Of a stretch of DNA of 64,000 bases, positions 37,941 through 55,696 are shown one piece after another. How positions within the stretch are numbered: position 1 is the first letter of the stretch; every line of letters starts with the position of its first letter. Made by a program: the position numbers and the translations under genes. Below the pieces are notes generated by a model. That model ran no database searches and was not told the DNA's origin. It saw only the letters and a list, made by a program, of their open reading frames with translations. The DNA is from Amoeboaphelidium occidentale (Eukaryota): the NCBI GenBank assembly GCA_023515795.1, contig JALGPX010000005.1:62001-126000 (forward strand), read 5' to 3'.

Positions 37941-40900
37941 ATGCCTGTCGCAGCACACGGAGGATCATCCCATCAATTCCCGTCACAGTATACTTTGGCA
38001 CAGCGCTTAGACTATTACTACAAGATCATTCAGGCTGTCATCTTAGCGAAGCAACATCCCATCACAGGTAGATTCGGACAAGATCGATATCGAACGCTAA
38101 CTATGGTAGGGCTTCTTCCAGCTTCCGTTGCTGTGAATTCCCATGGGGACTACAGAGATGCTTGGGTTAGAGACAATGTGTACTCTATCCTATGTGTGTA
38201 TGGTATGTTGATCGCTGGTTTAGACTTTGATCGCTGATCTTCAATATATTAGGCTTAGCCATGGCTTATCGCAGAGCAGACGAAGATCAAGGACGGGCTT
38301 ATGAATTGGAGCATGCTGTTGTAAAACTTATGAGGGGCTTATTGAACTCGATGATGAAACAGGCTCACAAGGTCGAGTTATTCAAAAACAAGCAGGCTGT
38401 TGAAAATGCGTTGCATGCAAAGTACTCAACAGCTACCGGTGATACTGTTGTTGGCGATAAAGAATGGGGTCATCTTCAACTTGACGCAACTGGTATATTT
38501 GTTTTATGCCTTGCTGAGATGACGGTAATTCTCTAAACGATTATGTCTGACTTTTCAGGCAAGTGGTATTCAGATTGTATTTTCGTTGGATGAGGTTGAT
38601 TTCATTCAAAACTTGGTGTTCTACATAGAAAGAGCATATCGTACCCCAGATTACGGGATTTGGGAAAGAGGAAACAAGATGAATCATGGCACGCCTGAAC
38701 TTAATTCATCTAGTATTGGCATGGTAGTAGCAGCTTTGCAAGCGATTAATGGTATTAATTTGTTTGGATCAAGAGGAGGTCCATCTTCAGTCATTCACGT
38801 ACTTCCCGATGAAGTCACCCGCAATTACACGACTCTTCATTCAGCCTTACCTCGTGAATCTAATTCTAAAGAGATTGATGCAGCATTGATATCTGTCATC
38901 AGTTATCCTGCGTTTGCAGTTCAAGACGTAAAATTGATTCAAAAAACTAAACATGAGATAATTACGAAGTTACAGGGCAAGTATGGCTGCAAAAGATTTC
39001 TCCGTGATGGACATCAATGTGAACTTGAGGACACTAGGAGACTTCATTATGAGGCTTCTGAATTGAAGGTTTTTGAACATATTGAGTGTGAATGGCCATT
39101 GTTCTTAACTTATTTTATTCTTGATGGCGAATTCAGCGGAGATAAAAAGCAAGTTGAGACTTATCACTCCATTCTGACTCCTATACTTCTGAATTCAAAA
39201 GACGTTGAATCCCACGATTCTCATGCAGCGAAATCGCCGACATCTCCATTGGTCAACAACGGTGATCTATTGGATGCCTCCCATACACCAACTAAGGCGA
39301 ATAACGCCGTGCACTTCCCGAAAACACCTTTGCCGTCAAATACACTGCTTGTACCAGAACTGTATATTCTTCCAAAAGATCTTGTTTACATGGAGAAAAA
39401 AGAACCGAAATCTCAGAAGCGATATCCTAATGAGAATGTGCCGCTGGTTTGGGCACAATCATTGTACATGCTTGGAATGATGATGAAAGAGGAGTTATTG
39501 TTACCATCGGAGATTGATCCTCTTGGAAGGCATTTAATTCCATATTACAGAAGCTCCCATAAAACCGAAGCGACAGTGCAAGTGGTTTTAATCGCAGAGG
39601 ATGCGGGACTACAGCAGAAATTGGCCATGTTTGGCGTTGAGAGTCAAACTCCAGAACAAGCCTCTCCGATAACTATTTCTTTTCCTTCTGCATTGAGAGA
39701 AGCATACAGCGCTTTAGGTGCTAATTCAAAGCTTTCGTTATCGGGAAGACCAAAAAGACCTGTTGGCACTTTGGCAACCTGTAGGATTTACAAGGTTCAA
39801 GGGCGATTGTATGCTTTTACGCCACATTTTATGGACAAAGAAGAGTTCTACATGACCAACGATAACGATTACTTAGGTATCCAACCTTCCATAACGCTTT
39901 AATTTTCTAGTTTCTCTGTTTGAACATGAGTTACTTTTTGTGAAGAACCATTGGAGATATACAGGAAGGCCAACAATGATTGTTTTGTTGACCCATGAGA
40001 TGATGGGGTCCATGAAGAGCAGCGCATCCAACGATAGCATAGCTAGCTTGGAAAAGTCTGCTCCAAATTTGAGACGTGGATTGTTTGTTTCGAATAAGAG
40101 CCGGAAAAGCTTACTCAATTTTATAACTTCCCTTAAAAGCGGCAGTTGCGCCGGAGTTAGAGTAAAGCTTGGTCGGGTCCAGGAGCTAGTATCGACAAGT
40201 TGCATCGAGAGTTTGGATTTCCTCACCAGGAAACTGGAGGAGGGATACGTGATGAAAGATGGTAAGAGATTGTCTTGGCAACAAGTTCTTGGTGGTGTAT
40301 CAGATTCTCAAAAACAGGACACCAAGATGTTTTTGCAATCTTCTATGAATGCTTCCCCTAAAGCAGAGAGTATCGAAAAGTTGACCGAAGTTACAAAACA
40401 ATTTCAAACCTCTATTTCAATCATTGCCAGCCCTAAATGCAAGCCGATTGTAACTAATGGTAATATTTTGCCTTCTCTTGATTTGAGTGGTGTAAACTCG
40501 GCCAAATCTCAACCAAATCTAGGTCGCAATGGAAGTGATTTCAAACTGAGGAGCCATCACAGAGAGTCTTTTCATCGCCCGATGTCTCCACTACAAATAG
40601 TCCGAGATTCTGTTTCCAAGAAAGACGAGACTCATTCTGATTACAATTCTCCAATTACTGGGGTGCAGTCAGAGAAAAGTATTGTCTTCATGTTGGGCGA
40701 TAGATCGTTTTTAAGCCAAGCTATTGATATGCTTTCAAGCTCAGTGAACCTACACGATCAGATCAAAATTTTGCACTACATTCTTTCATGCCACAAAGAT
40801 TCAAGTGTAGTAATACATTTAAAAGATAGTGGAAGCGCCTCGCTGAAGGAACTATTGGAAGAAGTCTACCAAAAAGCTTGTCATCTGAGACTATGGAGCG

Positions 40901-42564
40901 TTGTTCGCTATGCCGCTGCTGTGCTGCGAAAAGTTGTCAACAGTTTAACTATCAATGTTACCGATCTTCTAATTAGACAAAAATACTTAACAATTGGTGT
41001 GGAAGGATCTGAAGTAACAGTATCAGCACCTCTAGGCCCAGATGCTTTAGTTGATATTATCTATAAGCATTGGTATGTTTAATAATTCCTTTTAAATATT
41101 TTTTAGCCAAGACGATGTTAGAATAGCGTCTCTAATTCAAGAAATTCTTATTTATCTTGGAAGCTTTGTGCGGTCTGAGCCGCACTTGTTTGACGGAATT
41201 CTGAGATTAAGAACTCATTTTATCATTCAAATTATGCAAGAGGAAGTACAGCGTCTTAAAAGCTGTGACGGCAAGAAAGCGGTTGAATCTCTTTTAGATG
41301 TAAGCATTTCTTTCTATCATCTGAACTTTAGTTGGCCCCATTTGAAATTAAGGCATTAATAGGTCATATTTTGAGTGCTAAAGATCAGACAAAAGTTTTT
41401 GGCTCTTTCAACTTTTCTGATCCTTCCTGTCTTCCATCTCCTTCGGTATTTGGGACTCCGATAGATTACGGATCCAATGTGGCAAGAATCAAAGTCCAGT
41501 CAGGAGGATATTTCGATGGTAATTTCTCTTTTATAGAGATAAATGGTCATATGTTTCATGAGAATAGTGGAAGGGGATTGAATGTTGTTATTTTGAGTCA
41601 TGAAGATGGTTCTTTGATTGATAGTGAGCATTTTGATACACACATTAATAACGAAGAAGCAGAGGACTTTGCAAAATTAATCGATAATCTTGAGTCAAAA
41701 TCAATTGTTGTAATTTGTGTGAAAGATGACTGTATTGAGCAGATGACAGAGGCAGGTCGTCTTGCTATAGAATCTATTGGTTCAAAAATGATCAGGAGTC
41801 TGTCTTATAGAGATTCCTGGTGTATCATTGGTAGAAAAGACGGCTCGGCGGTAGAGACGATAAGAAAAGCTCGTCATGGCCCAACTGATGTATTAGAGCT
41901 TGAAATCAGCTTTGATAAACTATTTGAAGACCGTGAAGCCACAGGCTTTCCTTTTGCTACAGGAATGAAATCTCTTCCAAGTAAAGGCTATTGGTTAAGA
42001 AGAAGAAAAATTGATGGCTCTTTACAAAGAACCCCGCCAAAGTTTTATGCAAAAGTCCACAGGATTCTTGAAAAATCCTTATCCGGTATCAAGATGAATA
42101 GTGCGCTGTTACCTAGAGATCCTACTGTGAGCGAAAAAACGCCAGAGGAGCTTAATTTTGCTTTGCAAGTTGAAGAATTGATGAATGCTATTGTTGATCC
42201 GGCAGAGAGGCAGATAGCCGTGGAATGTCTTACGGTTGTTGACGATATGGAGAGTAGAAGGCCTGAGATGAGTTTTGGTGGAACTTCCTATCTTGATGTC
42301 ATGATGATTATTAAGGAAGCTTATAAATTATTCTGGGAATCTTGGCTGAACACAGAAGGCATGAAATCAATTGATCCTGCTGGATTGTCGAAAAAGGAAG
42401 AAGTTTTACAGAAGCACAGCTTCTCTCAGTATGAAGCCTTTGCTAAGAAGCTATTTTACGATTTACCAATAGGTGGTAAAGAAGGAACTTTTAGTTTTAT
42501 TGCGCGTGCTGCACTCAAGTCTTTGCCTATTCAAATGGACTTTGGCGAATTTTCATACGAATAA
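37941..42564 (+). CDS. Phosphorylase b kinase regulatory subunit alpha/beta family (GH15-like) with ILEI-like insertion; multiple introns
   Basis: [79 protein letters not shown]. Confidence 0.9.
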
Positions 42565-42701
42565 GAAATCATCGAGTCATTGTGCAACTTTGAAATAGAT
42601 ATTTTGCGTCAGGCTGGTGTATCTCATTTGAAACGGTCGGAGCAGCCCGCGAATCCTTGTCAGTCGCTGAATCTATTTATAGATTTTTTTGGAAAACGAT
42701 A

Positions 42702-44746
42702 ATGAGCGCAACATCTCACTGGGAGGATAACTTTTGGGTACGTAGCAATTCATTTCACGCTTATAGTTTAGGGAGAATCTAACAAGGGCTTCCTTTCATT
42801 GTTCGAACGTCTAGACAAGGCTCAAACAAGCATCAAGGAAGTTGCAGATTTCTTTATCGCAAGGTTTGTACAAAGCCAACCATCTAACTCGTGTTAGATC
42901 TCGAGTTGAAGCAATATATGCGAATGAATTGACAAAAGTTTCAAAGCAGTTGGGACAGAACTCAGATCCTGGGTAACTTTGAGTGATTCGTGAACAAGCT
43001 TATTGATAGGTCCTTACAAAAGGTCCATGAAAAGTTGGCGTATAATTCAGAGATTATTGCCAAGACTCACAACATCTTTGCTAACAGGGTCGTACAGGAG
43101 GTTGAACAGCCTTTGCAACAGTACCTTGAGGTTCAAAAGAGGCTTAGGGCGTCATATGAGCAAGAGTTTGACCGTTTAAACAAGGCAATTGCCAAAGAAC
43201 TTGCCAACATAGAGAAATGTAAAAAGGATTATACTTTAAAAGGAACAGAGTTGACAAAGGCAATCCAGATTGCAGGAAAAGGTCAGACTGACAATATGAC
43301 AAAGAAAGAGTACGAAAAAATCCAGGAGAAAGCCATCAAGTCCAAAAAGGACATGGACGCAGCTGAGCAAGAGTATAAGGCAGCATTGAAGAAATACGAT
43401 GCAGCGCAAGATCAGTATGATGAGAAGCTTAACGAGTTTGCGAGGGAAGTTCAGAAGCTTGAAGCTGAACGCTTGGCAGTGTCGCAAGCATCTTTGAATA
43501 AGATAATGGATTCGCAACTTGAGCTTCTTGGTAACATCACTCAAGGATGCTTCCAAAAAATGAAAGAGAACTTGAATTTGCTAACTCCTGCTGAAGATTT
43601 GACTTTATATTTGGCTCAGCATAAAACAAGCTCTTCTAAGCCTGCGCGCCCAGCATTTCAAAGCTTCTTTGGTAATAATCCAGGTACTGGTAGGCGTCAT
43701 TTAAGTTCTGCAAATCGCAGCAGTAGTAATTTGGCTACGAATTCCAATCCAGGAAGTTCGAATGATTTGGACAAGGGTAGCAGATACAACTCCTCTGATG
43801 CCTTGAAAGATGTCGCAAGAAATAATCTTGTAAGAAGCAAAAGTCAAGTCGATGGCAAAAACATGGCAGATGGAAAATCAAATGAAGCTATTCCTCCGGT
43901 CCCAATGCTGCCAAGATCGCCTTTGTCTTCCAGCTCTATTTCTAATCAAAGATTTAACGGAAATGGTTCGGATGGAGATGTCGCAAAAAGTCCACTTGAT
44001 AATGAAGCATCTCCAAAAACTCCAACCAGCGATGCTAATTCCACGAAAGTAATCAAGAAGGATTCTCTTGGAGATTTGAGCGTCGAAACCAAGAAGGCTC
44101 AAAGAACAGAGGATTCTTATGGTGCAGCACAGTCACATACTGCGCAAGGTAATGCGGTTGCAAAAAGTGATGAAAATCTTGAGAAGGCAACAGTTGCATC
44201 ACCTGATTCTGGCTTCATTTCACCTGGAGTTTCAGAAGCGACTAGGTCAAAAGAGCACTCAGCTAGTAATTTAGCTTCATCTGCTAGTTTCTCTTCATTG
44301 ACTGATCTTGCTCCAGGAACTGTTGAGGCTCTGAAAAAGCGTGTCTTTGCAAGGCGATCCATCAAAATGGAGGGCTGGTTAGAAGTTTGCGAAAATAATA
44401 GCTCTCAATGGGCTAAAAGATGGTGCTCGTTGGAAGGCGGTTATATTTGGTTTTTTGAAAACCAGTCTGACAATGCTAAGGTTCCAGGAGCTGCTAAACC
44501 AAAGTCGATGTTGAGCGTATCCAAAGGTATTGTAAAGAGAGGATTGAATGCATCAGGTTGGTCCGCTCCCACACATGGCTCAGCGAATATTGATAGTTTG
44601 GCCTTCACCTTGACAATCAGTAAGTGTTTTCGTTGTTACCTTGACTAATTTTAGGCGGAAAAAGTGAATGTGTTTTACTGGCACCGAATACAGAAGACTT
44701 GAACTTATGGGTCGAATGTCTTGAAAGTGTAATTCGCAAAAAATAA
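42702..44746 (+). CDS. F-BAR (FCH) domain protein with C-terminal PH domain
   Basis: WEDNFW...GFLSL...FF..R..VEA.YA N-terminus, coiled coils, and PH motifs MEGWL...WAKRWCSL...EDLNLWVECL. Confidence 0.8.
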
Positions 44747-44874
44747 AGCTATTTGCAATGTTTTGTTAGCAAGTCTGCTGAGTGCTCTCGATTGGTGGAT
44801 TGAAGTGTATGTCATGTCATTTTCTACTTCCTCGATATGAAGAACGAAACGTAAGTGGTTTTGTGACAATTCTG

Positions 44875-46137
44875 ATGTCTAGTATAAATATTACACACGA
44901 GGTTTACACCACTGAAGCCGTAGAAGAGGCGTTATTGGCGTTGAAATCAAGAACATTGGTAAATGCTAATGTGAAACGATCAAATTTCAACGGTCCGGTA
45001 CAGAATCAGCAACAAGGCGAAATAGTTCATTCTTCTGTTCTTTCCGGTCCCTTGTCACATCCCGTAAATGCGCTGAGGAGAGTTTCTGGTATTGATAGTT
45101 CAGATCATACATTGAGCAACACTACTCCTGCTGCAAGAGTACCATTATCTCATCATCGTCCTTTTCCTTCGAGTCTATATGAATATCAAGGCGTCAGTGA
45201 TCCTTTGGATACGAGAAACAATATGAAGACTATGGACGCCCTGTTTGACGCTACTTTCTCGGACTTCATACGGAATGAGGAGAATGTTTTGGTGATTGCC
45301 AGACATTTGGCTAGTATTGCCATGCAACATCATGTTCACGTAGTATCAAATGGGCTTAGATGGTTCCTGGAGGGCTGGTCCTTGGAAAGCGTAGCAAAGC
45401 TCTTAAAACTGATGACGCGTGAATGGAGCCCTTTAAAGGCGGGTACATTGATCAATTTGCTGTCTTATGGTTGGTCAGTGAACGAAGCTAACGCCATAAT
45501 ACATGAGAGTAGCTCGATGAAAAACGCTTGCATAGTTTCTTTTAATGCGCTCTCTCCATCGGAATTTCTTAACGTTGCTGCAATGTCTCGTTTGTCAAGG
45601 CATTCTCTGTGGAAGCTAGTTGCAATAATGATGGCAGGAGAGGATCCTATAGTAGCAGCCAAGTTCATAAAAAGTCTTACATGCAGCAGCAATTGGGACT
45701 CAGAGGGCGTGACAGAATTGATAAGTTTTCTTGATGCCGTGCTCGAGTGGGATGAAACATACTTTAAGGGCTTCACTCAAGAGTACATTCGCTGCATTAA
45801 GCAGGAAATATTCTTATGTGGAGACGAAAATATTGATCCTGAAAAGGCTCCTATCGTGTCGAAAATATCGTTTGACTATTTGGCTGCTCTTTACAAGACC
45901 AATCTTGCTTTAGCAAATTACAGATTAGCTCTCGTCGATTTTAGAATGGCTGCATCTAATAGAGCTCCAGGAGAAAAATCAGAGGACGCTCCTGTAAATT
46001 CGCCAAAAGAAGACGAAGAGCAGCAAGGTGTACCTTTGCTGAGCCATGAAGCGAATAGCGAGGATCATGTTGGATTAGTTAAGTCCAACTCGAGTAGTTT
46101 AAGTCTGGATTCTATTGGCCAAGAGAGGGCTCTGTAA
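44875..46137 (+). CDS. Hypothetical protein with helical W-spaced repeats
   Basis: Long ORF with repeated GW[SD]xxxxxxL[IL] units; no family recognised. Confidence 0.6.
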   Translation: MSSINITHEVYTTEAVEEALLALKSRTLVNANVKRSNFNGPVQNQQQGEIVHSSVLSGPLSHPVNALRRVSGIDSSDHTLSNTTPAARVPLSHHRPFPSSLYEYQGVSDPLDTRNNMKTMDALFDATFSDFIRNEENVLVIARHLASIAMQHHVHVVSNGLRWFLEGWSLESVAKLLKLMTREWSPLKAGTLINLLSYGWSVNEANAIIHESSSMKNACIVSFNALSPSEFLNVAAMSRLSRHSLWKLVAIMMAGEDPIVAAKFIKSLTCSSNWDSEGVTELISFLDAVLEWDETYFKGFTQEYIRCIKQEIFLCGDENIDPEKAPIVSKISFDYLAALYKTNLALANYRLALVDFRMAASNRAPGEKSEDAPVNSPKEDEEQQGVPLLSHEANSEDHVGLVKSNSSSLSLDSIGQERAL

Positions 46138-46146
46138 TAAAGGATT

Positions 46147-47894
46147 CTAAAAAGCAACTCCACTGAGATACTTGATGAACGGCTCAAACGCACAGTTTCC
46201 ATCTTTGTTAATTAGCAACGAGTCTTGGAATAATTCCTTCATTTCCTCTTCAGTAAGCTTTTCTCCACATGATGACATGACCTTGCGAAAGTACGCCCCA
46301 TTAATGGAGTTATTAACACTAATCGATGCGAGCTCAGTGAAAGCATCAACAATGAAGCCCTTTGCTGTAACTCTCCCTTCAGCCTTTAAGCAAGTGGGAT
46401 ACAAATTCTTCACTTGATCAAAAGTAACCTTTTCTAAACATAAAACGAGTAAAACTGTAGTCTTACCACCAATGTTCAATTTCTTAAGACAGTCTATGAA
46501 CCCATGATCGGTTATTAAACATCCAAGCGACATTATTAGCATTTTAGCCTCCGCCGCTGTGATACTTCCTGAATTCTTCCAGTCCAAGACTGAGAACATA
46601 GCACTCAGGTCTAAATGTCAGGAGGATATGACTTGGAGAGGAAACCTTTTTCGTTGGCTGGTTTCTTGATTCCATCTAGAAGAGGCACTGGATCTGTGTT
46701 AAGTATAAATCCCTTTGCAAGCATTTCTGATTCTTCTTTTCTAACGTTTTCCTCTGCCACGACACTCACTGAAGCGGCAAGAGGCTCCAGCCTGTTTTGA
46801 AGGGCTTTCGCATGTTTCTCCAGAGTTGTTGCCTCTGCAGACTTTCTTTGACTCGTCATATGGATCGTGCTCTGCCTTCTCGATTTGCTGGACTTCTTGG
46901 CGACCAGTTTCTCTAAGGCTTGTAAATCTTCTTCAGTCGCAACCTTTTGTGGATTTAAAGAGGCAGGGTCCGTTTTGTATTTTTCGAAGAACGGATGTTG
47001 AAGAAGCTCATCAGCAGTAGGGCGCTCAGCCGGATTTTTCTTGAAGCATGCACGGAGTAACGAATTCAATTCGTCGCTTAAACCTTCGGGCATCGGTGGA
47101 TGGTCGTCCTGCACAATTCTGAACAACGCGCTCATTGATTGAAGGTCAGCATATGGAGGAGATCCAGTGACTAATTCAATTATTGTGCAGCCCAAACTCC
47201 AAATATCTGCTGCGGGAGTGATTCCTTTTAACTCTATGACTTCAGGAGCCATCCTACAAATATAAATTATGTCGGAAGGACAATAAGCGTACCAATAAGG
47301 GGTTCCTACCGCATCCTCCGTCAAAGACCCTGATTCTGCCTTACTCAATGTCTTACTTACTCCGAAATCTGTCAGCTTTAATTCGCCTTTCTTCGTTGTT
47401 AGAATATTTGCACATTTAATATCACAATGAGCCACACCCTTGCTATGAAGATAACTAAGGCCTTGCAATGTCTGCTTAATGTATAACGATGCTAGGTTTT
47501 CAGTTAATGATCCGAATTGCTTCACGATGTTCAATAGTGATCCTTGTTCGACGTACTCCAAGATCAGGTTCAAATGAGAGTCCGACTTGATGAAATCAAT
47601 ATATCTGACAATATTCGGATGTGTAAGATCTCTCAGCAATCTTATTTCCGTTGTAAAAGACTCTACTTCATCACCAGAAACTCGATCTAAGTCGAACTGC
47701 TTTATCGCCACAACTTCGCCTGAGATTGAGTTCAAACCTCTATAGACTGTTCCAAAGGCTCCTTTTCCGATACAGTCCCCGAGCTGATACACTCCCACTG
47801 ATACATGCTTTGGAGCACTTTTCTTCTTCTTTGGACCCGCCTTTAAAGTTCCCAACTCATCTGTGGTCAACGAAGCTTTTGACGAAGGCGGCAT
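46147..47894 (-). CDS. Cdc15/Cdc7-like STE kinase fused to a calmodulin/myosin-light-chain-like EF-hand domain (introns 47254-47292, 46611-46645, 46434-46466)
   Basis: YQLGDCIGKGAFG, HCDIKCANIL, GTPYW|MAPEVIE, ALFRIVQDDHPP. A predicted 35-nt intron joins ...ANEK to DLSAMFSVLDWKNSGSIT in frame. Confidence 0.75.
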
Positions 47895-47969: not shown

Positions 47970-49058
47970 CTATTCTTCAAGTAGTGCAGCCAGCTCTGCT
48001 TCTTCCTCGGGAGACATGATATCTTCTTTATGTGCAACTTTAGCCGGGACTTGAACACTCACTTTTCCTCCTTTTGTACTAAATAGATTCTTCAAATCCC
48101 ATACACGTAGGGTTCCATCATACGAGCCAGAGAGCATAAACTGATTGTCCACAATGTCCAGGGTAGAAACTTCATCAACATTAGCGTCTATAACTTTTAC
48201 AGGGTTCTTCTGATCTTCTTTTGTCCAGAGTCTAATCTGATGGTCTCTGCAGCCTGTTACAATGAAGGGTCTCGCAACGGCTACGCATTTTATGCAATCT
48301 GGATGTTTCCATGCAAATACGGTCTTATTTTCGTGCCACAACTTCAAATAACAGTCAGCAGAGGTTGAAAAAAGCTCCTCCTCAGATATATCGTAGAATA
48401 TTCCATAAACACTTGTCTCATGCCCATTCATTACATGCAGACAGTTACCGGAAGATTGATCCCAGACCCGTATGCTTCTATCCGAACTGGAGCTAAGCAA
48501 ACGACTTTCTGCGAACTGGACGCCTTCAACAGCGCGGGTATGACCTTCTAACACATTTATACACTCACCAGTAGCATAATCCCAGAGTCGAATCTTCTTA
48601 TCAGCTGAGCCAGATGCTAAAATGACTTTTAAACCATGTGTGTCCATCCCGACAGCAGCACATTTCACAAAATCAGTGTGACCCTCAAATGTCCTTTCTG
48701 CCGCGTTCACTCTATCCAAGTTCCACAATTTGAGGGTCTTATCCCACGAACAACTCACGACAAAGTTGGCGGAAACAATACACAAGGCAGTAATAGGGGC
48801 TTTGTGCGCCTTATAGGCCTTGACTACATTACCAGATGGATAATCAACTACAGAAATACGACCTGCTGACTCTGCGACTGCTATCAAATTATGGCTTAAG
48901 AATCTTGCGCATAGAATTTGGCTGCATGTTGTGAATAAAGCCTTCCCGTATTCCCCTAGGAGTTTCGCTTCTTTGTCTTTTCTTTTAACGCTCTTCTCAA
49001 TAGTTTCGTCCGTTACAAAGTATTTCTCTGCATGGATTTCATCATCCAAGGCAGGCAT
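47970..49058 (-). CDS. WD40-repeat protein
   Basis: Multiple GH...SxSxDxxIxxWD repeats; start placed at MPALDDE. Confidence 0.88.
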   Translation of the reverse strand: MPALDDEIHAEKYFVTDETIEKSVKRKDKEAKLLGEYGKALFTTCSQILCARFLSHNLIAVAESAGRISVVDYPSGNVVKAYKAHKAPITALCIVSANFVVSCSWDKTLKLWNLDRVNAAERTFEGHTDFVKCAAVGMDTHGLKVILASGSADKKIRLWDYATGECINVLEGHTRAVEGVQFAESRLLSSSSDRSIRVWDQSSGNCLHVMNGHETSVYGIFYDISEEELFSTSADCYLKLWHENKTVFAWKHPDCIKCVAVARPFIVTGCRDHQIRLWTKEDQKNPVKVIDANVDEVSTLDIVDNQFMLSGSYDGTLRVWDLKNLFSTKGGKVSVQVPAKVAHKEDIMSPEEEAELAALLEE

Positions 49059-49551
49059 TTGCAGTATTCGAATCAAGCGAGAAAAAGAAATGCAATGCTG
49101 ACAAGACTCAACGGTAATGTCTCCAGTAACTAACCAATGCGGAGGAGCTTGTAAAAATGTTCTACCTGAACAATCAACTCTGTTTCGATGCCGAAAAATC
49201 TGTGTGCATTGTTTGGAGGTTGCGACTCGCAACAGTTTGCTACTAAGCAAGATAATTCTGACAAAAAACAAGCACTTTCGGCAAGGATCGAATTACTACA
49301 TCTAAAGTCTCGTATTCATAACAATCATTCATCTTTAGAACAGCCATGTCTGTTCTTATACCACAATCGAAAAAGATCTTTCTCATATCCATAGCCTCAC
49401 TCGTATGATACAAGAAGCGCGCTAAAGAATCATTACATGCACGATTTACTAATATTTCAGGCGATCTGAATTCATACTGCGGCATATTCCGTTCAGCGCC
49501 ACAGTTTTTCTTCCATTGATTCGCTCCTTAGACACCAACTTATCAAGAAAA

Positions 49552-51236
49552 ATGCAGGCGCCAGTCATTGTAATCAGTAAGTTCTTTGCTTTTGGCATAT
49601 AAATTATCAAGACCAAAATATGGAGAGAGAAACGGGACACAAAGCCCAATTGTCCAACATTACCGCAGCAAAAACGATTAGCGATGTTATTCGTTCTTGC
49701 TTGGGCCCGCGTAGCATGTTGAAGATGATGTTGGACCCCATGGGAGGAATCGTACTCACTAATGACGGTAATGCCATCTTGAGAGAGATTGAGGTCTCGC
49801 ATCCTGCCGCAAAGAGCATGATTGAACTTAGCCGCACGCAAGATGAAGAAGTTGGCGATGGTACTACCTCAGTCATTATTTTAGCCGGTGAAGTCTTGGC
49901 TAACGCGTTGCCGCATTTGGACCAAAAGATTCATCCTGTATTGATTATTTCTGGATTTAGGAGAGCTTTGGATGATGCCATGAAGTTCTTGGAGGAAATC
50001 TCTGTCCCTATTGACGTTAACAACAAGGATTCTATGATGCAGCTAATTCAGTCTACGTTGGGCACAAAGTTTGTCAGTCGTTGGAGCAATCTTATGTGTT
50101 CCATGGCACTCGATGCCGTTAAAAAAGTTGCCGTTGACGCATCTGGAAAGCCTGAAGTTGACATCAAGAGATACGCTAGAGTCGAAAAGATCCCTGGTGG
50201 TGAAATCGAAGATTCTTGCGTTTTGGATGGTGTCATGATCAACAAAGATGTTACCCATCCCAAGATGCGCCGTTACATCAAGAATCCTCGTGTTGTCTTG
50301 CTAGACTGTCCTTTAGAATACAAGAAGGGAGAATCTCAAACAAATATTGAAGTTACAAACGAAGAACACTGGAATCGCTTGCTTCAGATTGAGGAAGAGC
50401 AAATCCAACAGCTTTGTGAAAAGATTGTTGCCTTGAAACCTGATATCGTTTTTACCGAAAAGGGTGTTTCTGACTTGGCTCAGCATTATTTGTTGAAGGC
50501 TAATATCACAGCTATCCGTCGTGTTAGAAAGATGGACAACAATCGTATTGCCCGCGCTACCGGTGCAACAATTGTTAATCGTGTTGATGATTTGAAGGAA
50601 TCTGATATCGGTACTAAGTGTGGTTTGTTCAAAATTGAGAAAATTGGCGATGAATACTTTACATACCTTGTTGAATGCAAAGATCCTAAAGCATGTACAA
50701 TTGTTTTAAGAGGTGCTAGCAAAGATGTTCTCAACGAAGTTGAAAGAAATTTGCAAGATGCTATGAATGTGGCCAGAAACGTTTATTTCCATCCTAGATT
50801 ATGTCCTGGAGGTGGAGCTACTGAAATGGCCGTTTCAGTCAAGTTGATGCAAAATGCTTCGTCTGTTGAGGGCGTAGAACATTGGCCATATCGCTCTGTT
50901 GCTGAATCTTTGGAGGTTATTCCTCGCACTCTTGTTCAAAATTGTGGAGGCAGTGCGATGAGAGTTTTAACTCAACTAAGAGCAAAACACGCATCAGGTG
51001 AAGGAAATTCATGGGGTATTGACGGAACGCAAGGTGTTATCGTTGACATGAAGGAATATGGCGTCTGGGAGCCTTTTGCTGTCAAAGCTCAGACAATGAA
51101 GACTGCAATTGAATCTGCATGTTTGTTGCTGCGTGTAGACGACATTGTTTCAGGTATTTCCAAAAAGAAGCAGACAAGCAGTGCACCTGTTCAAGACGCA
51201 CAAGCCATGGATGCAGATGACATGGCAGAAAGATAA
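49552..51236 (+). CDS. CCT3: T-complex protein 1 subunit gamma (1 intron near the 5' end)
   Basis: MQAPV..., CLGPRSMLKM, QDEEVGDGTTSV, LEYKKGESQT. Confidence 0.96.
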
Positions 51237-51269
51237 GTAAACGAGTATCTAAACGAAACATGATTTTAT

Positions 51270-51623
51270 TCATTTTATATCCGCTAGAGAAGCCAATGCT
51301 TCTTCGTCCAGACCAGATCGAGCCATTTTGCGATTGAACTTGGAGAATTCCTCGCTTGTGGTGTCCCGGTGAAGGAGACTCACACGAGGATTCCATATAG
51401 GATGATTAGTGGTATCTTTGACCATAATGACGCGATTTCGTGGCATAGATGTAGTAAATGTGAAAGTAGATCCGTCAGCGTGTATACATGTTGCGGTAAA
51501 TTGTTGCACTTTAGCAGCAGGCGGATACAGTTTGTCTCTTTCGGCTCGCAGCCTCTTCAAAGTTGCTGGCACGAGCTTAGATAACTCGCTGTGCGTATTA
51601 TTAAATGAAGTCCAACGCGGCAT
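51270..51623 (-). CDS. Mitochondrial ribosomal protein bL31m (yeast MrpL36-like)
   Basis: ADGSTFTFTTSMP...KDTTNHPIWNP...FSKFNRK. Confidence 0.75.
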   Translation of the reverse strand: MPRWTSFNNTHSELSKLVPATLKRLRAERDKLYPPAAKVQQFTATCIHADGSTFTFTTSMPRNRVIMVKDTTNHPIWNPRVSLLHRDTTSEEFSKFNRKMARSGLDEEALASLADIK

Positions 51624-51686
51624 GGTTTTTCTGAAAGAAGAATATTTCTCCCAAAACCTTGACTTTACAAAACTAAGGGATTTTAA

Positions 51687-52879
51687 ATGACCGTAAAGAA
51701 ACTTGTACTTACTGGAGGACCATGTAACCAGTGCCTTTTTCTAAGTTTAACTTTCAGGCGGTGGCAAAAGCACAGTACAAAGTATCATCTCAGACGTGTT
51801 TAGCAATCAAGGCTGGAAAGGTTCGACTTAATGATAAGTCGCACTTATTTGTAGTTTTCAGAGTTTCAGAGACTGCTACCGTATTACTGAGTGGTGGGGT
51901 TACTTTTGCTGATTTATCTGAAGAACAAGCATTCCAGTTCCAGAAGGACCTCTTGTGTGTAATGATGAACATTGAACAAACATACTTCAACCTGGCTAAG
52001 ACAGAGGCTCTTAAAGGAAATAAGTGCCTGGTTATATGTGACCGAGGAACTATGGATGCCAGTGCATATATCAAGAAAAGTGAGTGGGCGAGAATTCTCC
52101 AAGAACTCAACTTGAATGAGATCGAGATACGCGATCATAGATATGATATCGTATGCCATTTAATAACTGCCGCTGATGGCGCTAAAGAGTTCTACAATCT
52201 TGGTACTAATCATGCTAGAAGTGAAGATCTTGAGCATGCCATCCGTTTAGATGATTTGTGCAAGAATGCATGGATCGGACATCCATATTTTGATCTTATT
52301 GATAACTCTACAGATTTTGACACGAAATGTAACAGGGTCGTTGGAGCAGTTCTTAAACGCCTGGGTTTACCAGACAGGAGATTTTCCTCTGAATTTAAAA
52401 AGTTCAAGTTCTTGGTGAAGAAAGATTTTCAACTCAAACAAGATTTTCCTGTGCCTTACCAGGATTTCGAAGTTGAACATATATTTTTACCAGTGAAAGA
52501 CGGAAATCAGTCCCGCGTTCGCAGAAGAACTCAAGCAGGAGTATCACATTACAATATCACCACAACAAAGGTCTCAAAAGCAGATAACATTATTGAGTAC
52601 CGTAGGTCGCTAACTGGAAGAGAGTTTGAAGCCTTAATCCAGCAAGGTGACGAGTCAAGAGTACCAATTATGAAAAAACGTCGATGCTTTATTTATGATA
52701 ACAGAACTTTTCAATTGGACTTTTTCTTGACTCCGGAATCTTCAAAAGGGACAGTTTTATTGGAGGCATATTTACCTCGCAACTGCGACACAAAGAACCT
52801 GCCTGAATTCATTCCAATTGAAAAAGATGTGACTGATGTGAAAGAATACTTCTTGTCAGAGATAGCTTTGAAGAAGTGA
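51687..52879 (+). CDS. TTD14-like protein (P-loop AAA_28/NadR domain plus CYTH-like domain; 2 short 5' introns)
   Basis: KLVLTGGPC|GGKS, VSETATVLLSGG, ICDRGTMDASAY, AWIGHPY, RVRRR, KRRCFIY...FQLD. Confidence 0.82.
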
Positions 52880-52900
52880 CGGAAACAAAATAGACAAAAA

Positions 52901-55696
52901 TTACTGGAATGTGCCATCTCTGTTCTGTCCTTCATTTCGCGATGTTGTTGATGGAAGGGGGAACGGACTTTGGAGAGGATTAACAATCACGGGACTAGGT
53001 AACTGACCCAAATCAGTCTCAAACCGTCTCATATTAATTAATGCAGGTCTGGGCCTGTCTTTTGGCGCTAATCGGGCTCCACTTCCGGTTCTTCTCATTG
53101 GAGACGGACTCGATACAGAAGCGTCCATGGTCATTTCCAAAGTGTCATCTAAAGCGGCATCTCTCCTAGTCTGATTGTTTAATGGCGAAAATTTCGTTCC
53201 CGCCGATGGGACTTCCTGCAAGCTAACAGACCGCTGAAAGTTTGGGACGTTGATTATCCTTTCCAAGCTTTTTCTTTGCTTTTGGTCCAGCCTTGTGAAT
53301 CCTGAGTTCTTTCTTCGTTTGTATAAATTGTACAGAACATACAAGACAATAAAAAGTACAGAAACGCCGAATAAGAGTCCTAATACAACGTAGGGATCAT
53401 ATGTACTTTTTGAGAACTCAGCCTCCCAGTTGCAGGAGTATCGCAATGATGTTGGATCCAAGATCCAGTCTTTCTCTGCGCACGGTATACCATTGAAAGT
53501 TAATTTCCAGCTTTCAAGTGTGCCACCAGCTATTGAATCATCTTTGACTTTAATAGTCCAAGCACCTTCAGAATTTTCTCCCCAATGTCTTACAGACATG
53601 AAAGTCCATGAAAGACCATCTTCAGATTTGTCTAAAGGCCGCGGATGAAGTAGGAGCGATTCTAAGCCGGATGGTGAAACAAGCGTTACTGTTAAGTCTT
53701 TCCGAGATGAGTGGTCAAGCTTAATGTACAGCTGGACATGTTCAATATAAGCCATGCTCTTGGGTAAAGATTTTGACTCAACTGAAAGGCCGTTTTTCGG
53801 ATATTTCCATTGTGCACTTCGACAGCAGAGTATTTGAAGTTCAAGGATTTCTTTGCTTTTAGTTTGGAGTCCAAGGTTCTCATTTGAGCTAATAACCAAC
53901 TGCAGCGAGTCTGGGACCATTTTATGGCTCTTCACTGTTTCGAAGAGCATATTACCTTGAAGCAATCCAAAGCCATAATAATAGTGAACCTGCCGCCCAG
54001 ATCCAGTCTTTGACCAGCCTGGATCATTCATACGAATAGGCGAGGCAGACTTAACGACTATATGCTGAATATCTCTCCAATTAAGATTTCCACTTGATGA
54101 TTAGAGAACAATTCAAAATGACTTACTTTTGTTGCAGGACCAATGAAAGCATTCCTGAGGCAAAAGGCGTAGCAGCAGATGTACCGTGATGATCCAGAGT
54201 GCATCTCTCATTGATCTCTCCCTTTCTAAGGTTTTTTTGAAGAAAATCTGTAGTTGCTATACCGTCCCTCTGAGTTCCTCCAAAAGTCACAGCTAATTGA
54301 GCCGAGCAAACTTCTGAATACTGAGGATAATTTAATTCTTCATCCACAGCCTAAAATAAGTGTATAATAATAAAAGATTTACGCCAATGGATATGGTGAA
54401 AATGCTATTAGCATAACCATCCACAGTACAAATGTCTTGGAAAAAGCCACCGTTTCCACTAGCCATCACATAGATCGATCCTTTCCCGCTTCTCCCATTA
54501 ATGACCCCGTCAAGAATCGCGCCTCGAGTAAGATCTCCTGGACCATCCATACTTTTTCCATCATCTTGCGGGCTATATACATTATATTCAAGCCCACAAA
54601 CTTACCCCCATGATGCGCTGAAAATATGATTTGAGTGATAATTAAACGTTAGAGCCGATGCTTCTTTGGAATCATACGTAAAAGATGAAATTAACCGAAT
54701 GGCTATAATTAATCTTTTGAGTAAAAGATTTTACCAGACATTCTTGCTGCAGGACTTACTCCTATTCCACAAACAGAATTATTATGTTTGGAAAATATTT
54801 GACCCGCGCAGCGTGTGCCATGATTATCTTCTTTGTTGAAAGGCGGAACCAATGGAGTATTGTCTACAAAGTCCCAACTGAATTTTAAATCCTAGAATAA
54901 GATTATGTAGCTAAAAATTACAAATGCATGGGAAAGATCAGGATGCTCAAAATCCACACCTAAACCAAAAATTAAGGAAAATAATCAATATAAGCAAACC
55001 ATCATCGACCAGTGCGATTCGGACGCCTTGTCCATAGTATCCTGCCGCCCAGTACTCGAAAAGGTTAAGTCCAAACTTTTGCGCGCCATCAACCTTTGGA
55101 TTGATCTACAATTAAGTTCATAGAAGTAAGGTTACAATATGCCAGGAGTACTCGAGTAAAGGATCATTCATAGATTCGATCCATGCCGTTTTCATCTGAT
55201 CACTTAAGTCACCCTGCGAGGTAAAATCCCTTCGATGTCTCACACGGGGAGTTTCTTTTTGGTACCACACAATCTCATCCATTAGATCCAATATATCCAT
55301 AAACTTCTGTTCCATTTCATCCATGTGCTCCTTCGATAGCGGTTTGCATGTAACAGTAAAAAAGCCTTCTCTATCGCCGATCATCAGCTTATTGGTGCTA
55401 CAGTTCATGTAGCCGAACACTTCCAAGGCATCAGTGCTTTCGAAATGGGATTTCATATCCCTGTGTAATACCGCAGTGTCCCTATAAGGTGATCTACTAA
55501 TAACTCGATCTAAGATCGGAATACTCAGTTGTGGAGTGTTCATTATCTCAATTTCATTCCCCAAATATCGCTTATCTCTTCTAACAGGCTGTCTTAACAG
55601 CTTATCCACATACTTAACTCCAGTGGGAACAACGTAAGCTTTGATAACGAATTGAACTTCTCTGATGTCACCAGAATTAACAGGAGCGAAGTTCAT
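52901..55696 (-). CDS. Kexin/furin-family proprotein convertase, PC7-like (multiple introns)
   Basis: RVRHRR propeptide site, LVDDG, NHGTRCAG, SWG, GNGG, GTSAATP, P domain (EHVQL...WGENSEG), TM segment and cytosolic tail. The start is uncertain (55696 or 55762). Confidence 0.88.

Follow-up and report, generated by a model that had tools for sequence, protein, structure and literature searches.

Two open reading frames (ORFs) lie 11 nt apart on the minus strand of a contig from Amoeboaphelidium occidentale: one of 427 amino acids at 47894-46611, which encodes a protein kinase, and one of 150 amino acids at 46599-46147, with similarity to calmodulin. Are these neighboring genes, or is the stop codon of the kinase only apparent and the calmodulin-like sequence part of the same protein? 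Coordinates are those of the window, the 64,000-nt stretch of DNA that was analyzed. A first-pass annotation, made from the DNA sequence, had proposed that a 35-nt intron at 46645-46611 joins the two ORFs. This segment begins with GTTTCC, carries CTGAC at -11 and ends in TTTAG, and its terminal TAG is the stop codon of the kinase ORF; once it is removed, the frames of the two ORFs are joined.

Six public runs (X1 to X6) are listed for the region. The X1 contig spans only 46690-46928, with the junction of the proposed intron outside it; transcript assemblies of all five covering runs (X2, X3, X4, X5 and X6) skip exactly these 35 nt, and the proposed join was thus found as predicted. The spliced contigs come from two studies, and X2-X6 deviate from the window at a few positions per 100, which indicates closely related strains and not the same strain. 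Since these contigs skip GT..AG introns across 18 kb, they are derived from RNA. Fourteen of the 15 splice joints listed for the region (7 further joints lie beyond the list) are canonical, with lengths of 32-50 nt, and the 35-nt intron is therefore typical in size.

A kinase gene followed by a separate gene whose small EF-hand product starts at 46599 would account for the ATG that each ORF has of its own. The genes of the window also stand close together, and contigs that are unstranded can run neighbors into one, as in record 8 of X3. However, the splice itself deletes the stop codon and sets the frame in 5/5 runs, which argues for one gene over merged neighbors; in addition, the first helix of the first EF-hand (EF1) starts upstream of the second ATG, and the homologs described below are single proteins. 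We consider the two-gene reading refuted: the kinase and the calmodulin-like domain are fused in one spliced gene.

Two further introns, which the first-pass annotation had missed, are spliced as well. Intron 1 (47254..47292, minus strand, as are all features of the gene; 39 nt) lies in kinase subdomain VIII and is spliced in X2, X3, X4, X5 and X6, and intron 3 (46434..46466, 33 nt) lies in EF2 and is spliced in X2, X3, X4 and X5; in X6 it is also skipped, with one letter differing at its edge. Both are GT..AG introns that keep the frame and contain no stop codon, and the ORFs therefore continue across them. One contig, X2 record 3 (1776 nt), runs from 48000 to 46120 with all three introns absent. 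The spliced product of 546 amino acids is encoded by four exons and consists of an STE kinase, a linker and a four-EF calmodulin-like domain; both peptides quoted in the first-pass annotation are present in it. The coding part of exon 1 (47293..47894) holds the start codon, a lysine-rich N-terminus and kinase subdomains I-VIII, and exon 2 (46646..47253) the kinase C-lobe and the linker. Intron 2 (46611..46645, phase 1, with the GTTTCC donor and a branch-like CTGAC) separates exon 2 from exon 3 (46467..46610), which encodes EF1 and the initial part of EF2, and exon 4 (46147..46433) encodes the remainder of the calmodulin-like domain and the stop codon.

The fusion proved not to be hidden, as it had been called. 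The deposited model KAI3662194.1 (MP638_002180, "hypothetical protein", Amoeboaphelidium occidentale, 510 amino acids) equals the spliced product over amino acids 1-498 and uses the intron 2 splice, and hence already joins the two ORFs. It has an additional fourth intron, which we place at approximately 46294-46248 and which destroys EF4. Contigs of X2, X3, X5 and X6 show no gap there, i.e. the segment is unspliced, and EF4 is kept in the homologs. KAI3662194.1 thus cuts EF4 wrongly, and the correct length of the protein is 546 amino acids, not 510. Two database entries of 427 amino acids, P0003 and P0263, retain intron 1 too, and are for this reason unspliced gene calls.

Does this layout occur elsewhere, as the first-pass annotation had suggested checking? 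The homologs listed for the kinase domain are Cdc15/Cdc7-like, and among the best 120 of 4912 a kinase with a C-terminal EF region was found in three other proteins, P0005, P0010 and P0004. The EF region of P0005 (ENA, 563 amino acids) matches the EF domain of the window with an E value of 2e-15 among 122 proteins, and that of P0010 (JGI, 421 amino acids) with 7e-4; the latter also matches Pfam EF-hand_7 (E 8e-12). P0004 (Paraphelidium tribonemae, 538 amino acids) gives a direct E value of only 0.5 and was accepted on its length and on common core residues. One of 80 metagenome loci, L043, matches the EF profile with an E value of 1e-16; it is related to P0010 (80% in the kinase) and has introns of its own. 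P0008 is a kinase fragment, 81% identical. The architecture therefore recurs in Paraphelidium and in three environmental sequences (P0005, P0010 and L043), with no others among the matches listed. An HMM search of 1.84 billion representatives returned P0005 as the only protein with an EF region in the best 150, and a profile search returned no further EF-bearing member in the best 120 of 2141; kinase-only proteins crowd both search lists, and the known range is for that reason a lower bound. No fusion from Amoeboaphelidium protococcarum is among the matches listed, and a word-seeded search of longer proteins that used the EF ORF as query, insensitive enough to miss P0005 also, found nothing.

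The first-pass annotation had further suggested that retention of intron 2 would yield a kinase-only isoform. If retention were regulated, intron 2 would act as a switch and an unrestrained kinase of 414 amino acids would be made in some life stage. The acceptor TAG is an in-frame stop codon, and the GTTTCC donor is unique among the 14 introns. L043 likewise has a linker intron (647-703 of that locus) whose terminal TAG is an in-frame stop codon, but it is located approximately 15 codons farther away from EF1 than intron 2 is and differs from it in phase. Moreover, TAG ends most introns and would fall in frame by chance in one third of cases, and no retained contig is listed in the five runs, assembled contigs being prone to drop rare forms. 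We consider regulated retention improbable.

The kinase domain (46986..47789, amino acids 36-290) is of the STE group and the Cdc15/Cdc7 family; Pfam PF00069 matches with an E value of 4e-77 on P0262. Its glycine-rich loop, VAIK lysine, catalytic aspartate, DFG and APE are all present in the spliced product. The best PDB matches are STE20/STE11 kinases, both by sequence, with P0010 as the query, and by fold, with the P0005 model. A CDPK-like layout on a kinase outside the CAMK group, as had been claimed, is thus supported by these matches and by the Cdc15-like homologs. The catalytic loop of the window kinase (H156-C157-D158, 47421..47429) is non-RD by sequence, and each of the six members of the EF-fused kinase group has this HCD loop.

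A tree of 33 chosen kinase sequences, with no CDPK among them, places the window kinase in a clade with P0004, P0005 and P0008 (support 100/100) and P0010 with L043 in a separate clade (100/99). Both join a fungal clade (100/99) inside a group with support of 93/93, not starred, which stands apart from SepH, MAP3K-epsilon and ciliate CDC15. Support for the fusion having arisen once is weak (81/19), the alternative not being rejected (p-AU 0.40). The first-pass annotation had assigned the kinase to the STE, Cdc15/Cdc7 family, which these results uphold, and more narrowly to the SIN/MEN kinases, which they do not. Orthology with the SIN/MEN kinase was rejected in a constraint test that forced the window kinase, P0004, P0005 and P0008, a group named after the first tree had been seen, into a clade with fungal and aphelid SepH/Cdc7 (p-AU 0.003). 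In addition, a separate ARM-repeat SepH with an HRD loop, P0288, occurs in an aphelid. Judged by its sequence, then, the kinase is a member of the Cdc15/Cdc7 family in the broad sense and not the SIN/MEN kinase. Its catalytic domain is approximately 45-55% identical to those of Cdc15, Cdc7, SepH and MAP3K-epsilon, from which it differs in having HCDIK in place of HRDIK, aspartate or glutamate in place of serine or threonine in the activation loop, and an EF domain in place of ARM repeats.

The fungal sister clade consists of non-RD (HCDLK) Cdc15-like kinases from chytrids, zygomycetes and basidiomycetes, including P0012, P0017, P0064, P0081, P0270, P0281 and others. Many of its members have N-terminal CH and/or C-terminal C1 domains. 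This clade (e.g. P0064, P0081, P0270) is the nearest to the EF-fused kinases in the tree and shares the HCD loop with them, but none of the fetched members has an EF domain. It is distinct from SepH/Cdc7, yet NCBI often names its proteins "Protein kinase of the Mitotic Exit Network". The window kinase also marks a family of non-RD Cdc15 paralogs, present in early-diverging fungi and carried in databases under the label of the mitotic-exit kinase.

A second feature of the kinase lies in its activation loop. Residue D194 (47313..47315) is acidic and stands four places ahead of the activation-segment threonine, a site that we take to be the usual phosphosite (of PAK-type kinases) and that is mostly serine or threonine in the SepH/Cdc7 group. 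Aspartate or glutamate occupies this site in 6/6 kinases of the EF-fused group; these are related and do not represent six independent events, and acidic residues are common in the sister clade too. With 25 of 314 proteins left unparsed, the site is serine or threonine in 102/153 SepH-type kinases and aspartate or glutamate in 35/116 HCDL-type kinases. Acidic activation-loop residues let CDPKs (calcium-dependent protein kinases) act without phosphorylation of the loop, according to PMC5528832 and PMC5742180.

The calmodulin-like domain (46150..46646, amino acids 404-546) comprises four EF-hand units with degenerate loops, as the first-pass annotation had described. Pfam EF scores for the EF ORF of the window fall under the cut-off. 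As a single sequence the domain matches calmodulin with an E value of 4e-9, and a profile of five members does so with approximately 1e-23 over profile positions 7-142 of 144. Calmodulin and its variants fill the best 60 PDB sequence matches, with light chains and EFCAB2/DRC8 not among them, while the top Atlas matches are myosin light chain and EFCAB2/DRC8 clusters (0.93-0.94). A PROSITE EF-hand pattern matches no loop in any of the five members. EF2 loops are shortened, and in 4/4 alignable members position 12 of both EF3 and EF4 is not acidic. The EF1 loop (46549..46584, amino acids 413-424) is the only candidate metal site: in the window protein it retains D1, S5, G6, T9 and E12, with lysine at position 3, and so keeps four of five side-chain ligands. 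Across the members, position 1 is aspartate in 4/5 and position 12 is aspartate or glutamate in 5/5, and metal binding at EF1 may be possible for this reason; the loop is broken differently in each homolog, and D1 is lost in P0004. Residues common to at least four of five members are mainly core or structural (F409, L411, G433, F483, I495, R501, E515, I526), together with D413 and P391/L393.

For structure prediction P0005 served as a stand-in. Its AlphaFold model, built on a 21-row alignment (pTM 0.52), is confident for the kinase and for the EF N-lobe (pLDDT 70-95 in the latter) and poor for the C-lobe (pLDDT 35-54); the linker is disordered, with a moderate helix at 290-314 after the kinase. 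The model is uninformative on contacts between the domains, and fold searches with all 563 amino acids covered the kinase alone. The C-lobe is also the most eroded part of P0004 (14% identity). In light chains it is the C-lobe that does most of the IQ binding.

The linker (46647..46985, amino acids 291-403) had been described as basic. This holds mildly for amino acids 290-345 (11 K+R vs 7 D+E), which include a basic patch with RRQS (326-329), but not for amino acids 346-400 (8 vs 9). A weakly conserved middle part is followed by a P-x-L motif (391-393) approximately 12 residues ahead of EF1. Linker length varies among the members from approximately 25 amino acids in P0010 to approximately 150, and most of the sequence is unconserved, P-x-L alone being in common. 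Neither an IQ motif nor a basic calmodulin-target motif was found in the linker of the window protein.

The order of a kinase, a linker and a C-terminal four-EF calmodulin-like domain in one chain is that of the CDPK/CPK proteins of plants, apicomplexans, ciliates and oomycetes, and the Atlas features place P0010 beside CDPK clusters. An acidic activation-loop residue is a further trait in common (PMC5528832, PMC5742180). The window kinase differs in being of the STE group and non-RD, without consensus EF loops and without an evident conserved junction; CDPKs arose by fusion of a CAMK kinase with calmodulin (PMC3019232). Another independent kinase-EF fusion, confirmed by RT-PCR and also with weak loops, is Phytophthora infestans PITG_08008, but its EF-hands are N-terminal, it has a PH domain and its kinase is of the CAMK group (PMC3019232). 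Myosin light chains and EFCAB2/DRC8 likewise have a calmodulin fold with degenerate loops; those proteins are free subunits. The plant CDPK-related kinases (CRKs), which are derived from CDPKs and belong to the CAMK group, also combine a kinase with a degenerate, Ca2+-insensitive calmodulin-like domain. The window protein resembles them in this respect but is a separate fusion on an STE kinase. We conclude from these comparisons that its layout is like that of a CDPK or CRK, yet it is not a member of either family, the kinase group and the Ca2+ loops both failing to agree.

What might the EF domain do? We lean, if only slightly, towards a largely Ca2+-independent, calmodulin-like clamp that docks or regulates a kinase primed without phosphorylation, since the consensus Ca2+ ligands are lost while fold-forming residues are kept. 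The kinase domain would be intrinsically primed, so that control would come from outside the activation loop. The EF domain would then behave like a light chain that is built into the protein and holds a hydrophobic segment, which might be part of its own linker (the P-x-L ahead of EF1, or the helix that follows the kinase domain) or a helix belonging to a partner. The kinase may thereby be placed on the actin or myosin cytoskeleton, a role that would fall to the CH domain in the sister clade of fungi; this is the weakest step. Counting against a clamp are the mostly unconserved linker, the lack of a calmodulin-target or IQ motif in it, the poorly modeled C-lobe, and the best 60 PDB sequence matches, which put the domain nearer to calmodulin than light chains.

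The protein could instead be a true Ca2+-switched kinase that evolved apart from the CDPKs. Low-affinity Ca2+ binding at EF1 would cause the domain to take up an autoinhibitory linker with its RRQS basic patch and so free the active site. The CDPK-like domain order, the acidic activation loop, the ligands kept at EF1 and calmodulin as the best sequence match all fit such a switch, as does the helix that the P0005 model shows behind the kinase. For pfCDPK3, a single N-lobe Ca2+ with a Kd of approximately 38 uM has been proposed as the switch (PMC5528832), but pfCDPK3 keeps three intact sites. The weak-loop fusion PITG_08008 bound no 45Ca (PMC3019232). Also against a switch are the lysine at position 3 of EF1, its shortened partner EF2, the different lesions of EF1 in each homolog with P0004 lacking D1, and the lack of an evident conserved junction domain. 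We regard a Ca2+ switch as unlikely. A broader form of it, in which aphelids and a related lineage keep a separately invented STE/Cdc15-calmodulin kinase with a CDPK-like acidic loop, switched by Ca2+ at EF1, seems to us equally doubtful. If it were true, the opisthokont side would possess an equivalent of the CDPKs built from a different kinase group, and the fungi would have lost a Ca2+-switched kinase or swapped its EF module for CH/C1 domains.

Erosion of the domain might also mean that an ancestral Ca2+ sensor is decaying or has become a merely stabilizing appendage of a kinase that works alone. The lobes are only 14-37% identical between members, and in P0004 the domain is barely detectable; among the 40 of 57 strain differences that are listed, 2/5 in the EF region change a residue, compared with 1/10 in the kinase. 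However, the full two-lobe length and the core residues are retained across deep branches, and the contigs of the related strains (X runs) have no stop codons or frameshifts. We consider a decaying appendage quite improbable, a little less so than the regulated intron retention considered above.

Aphelids are parasitoids of algae and the sister group of the Fungi (PMC10608142). Kinase-calmodulin fusions have been described as CAMK-derived and as absent from fungi (PMC3019232, PMC8559351); the latter study, a search by annotation name that makes no mention of aphelids in the text cited, detected no kinase with EF-hands when it examined 521 fungal proteins bearing the name calcium/calmodulin-dependent kinase. 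The literature searched, a body without subscription papers (those on aphelid genomes included) or supplements, yielded no account of the gene or of any STE kinase that carries a calmodulin-like domain, and a kinase-EF fusion on an STE/Cdc15-family kinase is apparently undescribed. An STE-kinase fusion that is expressed, spliced and recurrent in a lineage sister to the fungi shows that the layout arose again, here with the acidic activation loop as a second trait in common with CDPKs. The fusion offers a direct test of how such kinases start out, as Ca2+ switches or as modules for docking.

The neighbors of the gene at 47970-54031 are housekeeping-like, namely a WD40 protein, a CCT chaperonin subunit, a bL31-like protein, an AAA_28 protein and a proprotein convertase; a functional tie to the kinase is not evident. 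On its other side lie, on the plus strand, a spliced gene at approximately 38000-42564 whose product resembles the regulatory subunit of phosphorylase kinase (KPBB_C, weak Glyco_hydro_15) and has an ILEI domain ahead of its C-terminal domain, and a spliced gene at 42700-44760 encoding a coiled-coil region at the N-terminus and a PH-like domain at the C-terminus. These are followed by a transcript-covered ORF of 442 amino acids (44809-46137, plus strand), without a Pfam match, which is convergent with the kinase gene. Approximately 10 nt separate the two stop codons, and together with the overlap of the contigs this suggests that the two genes have overlapping 3' ends.
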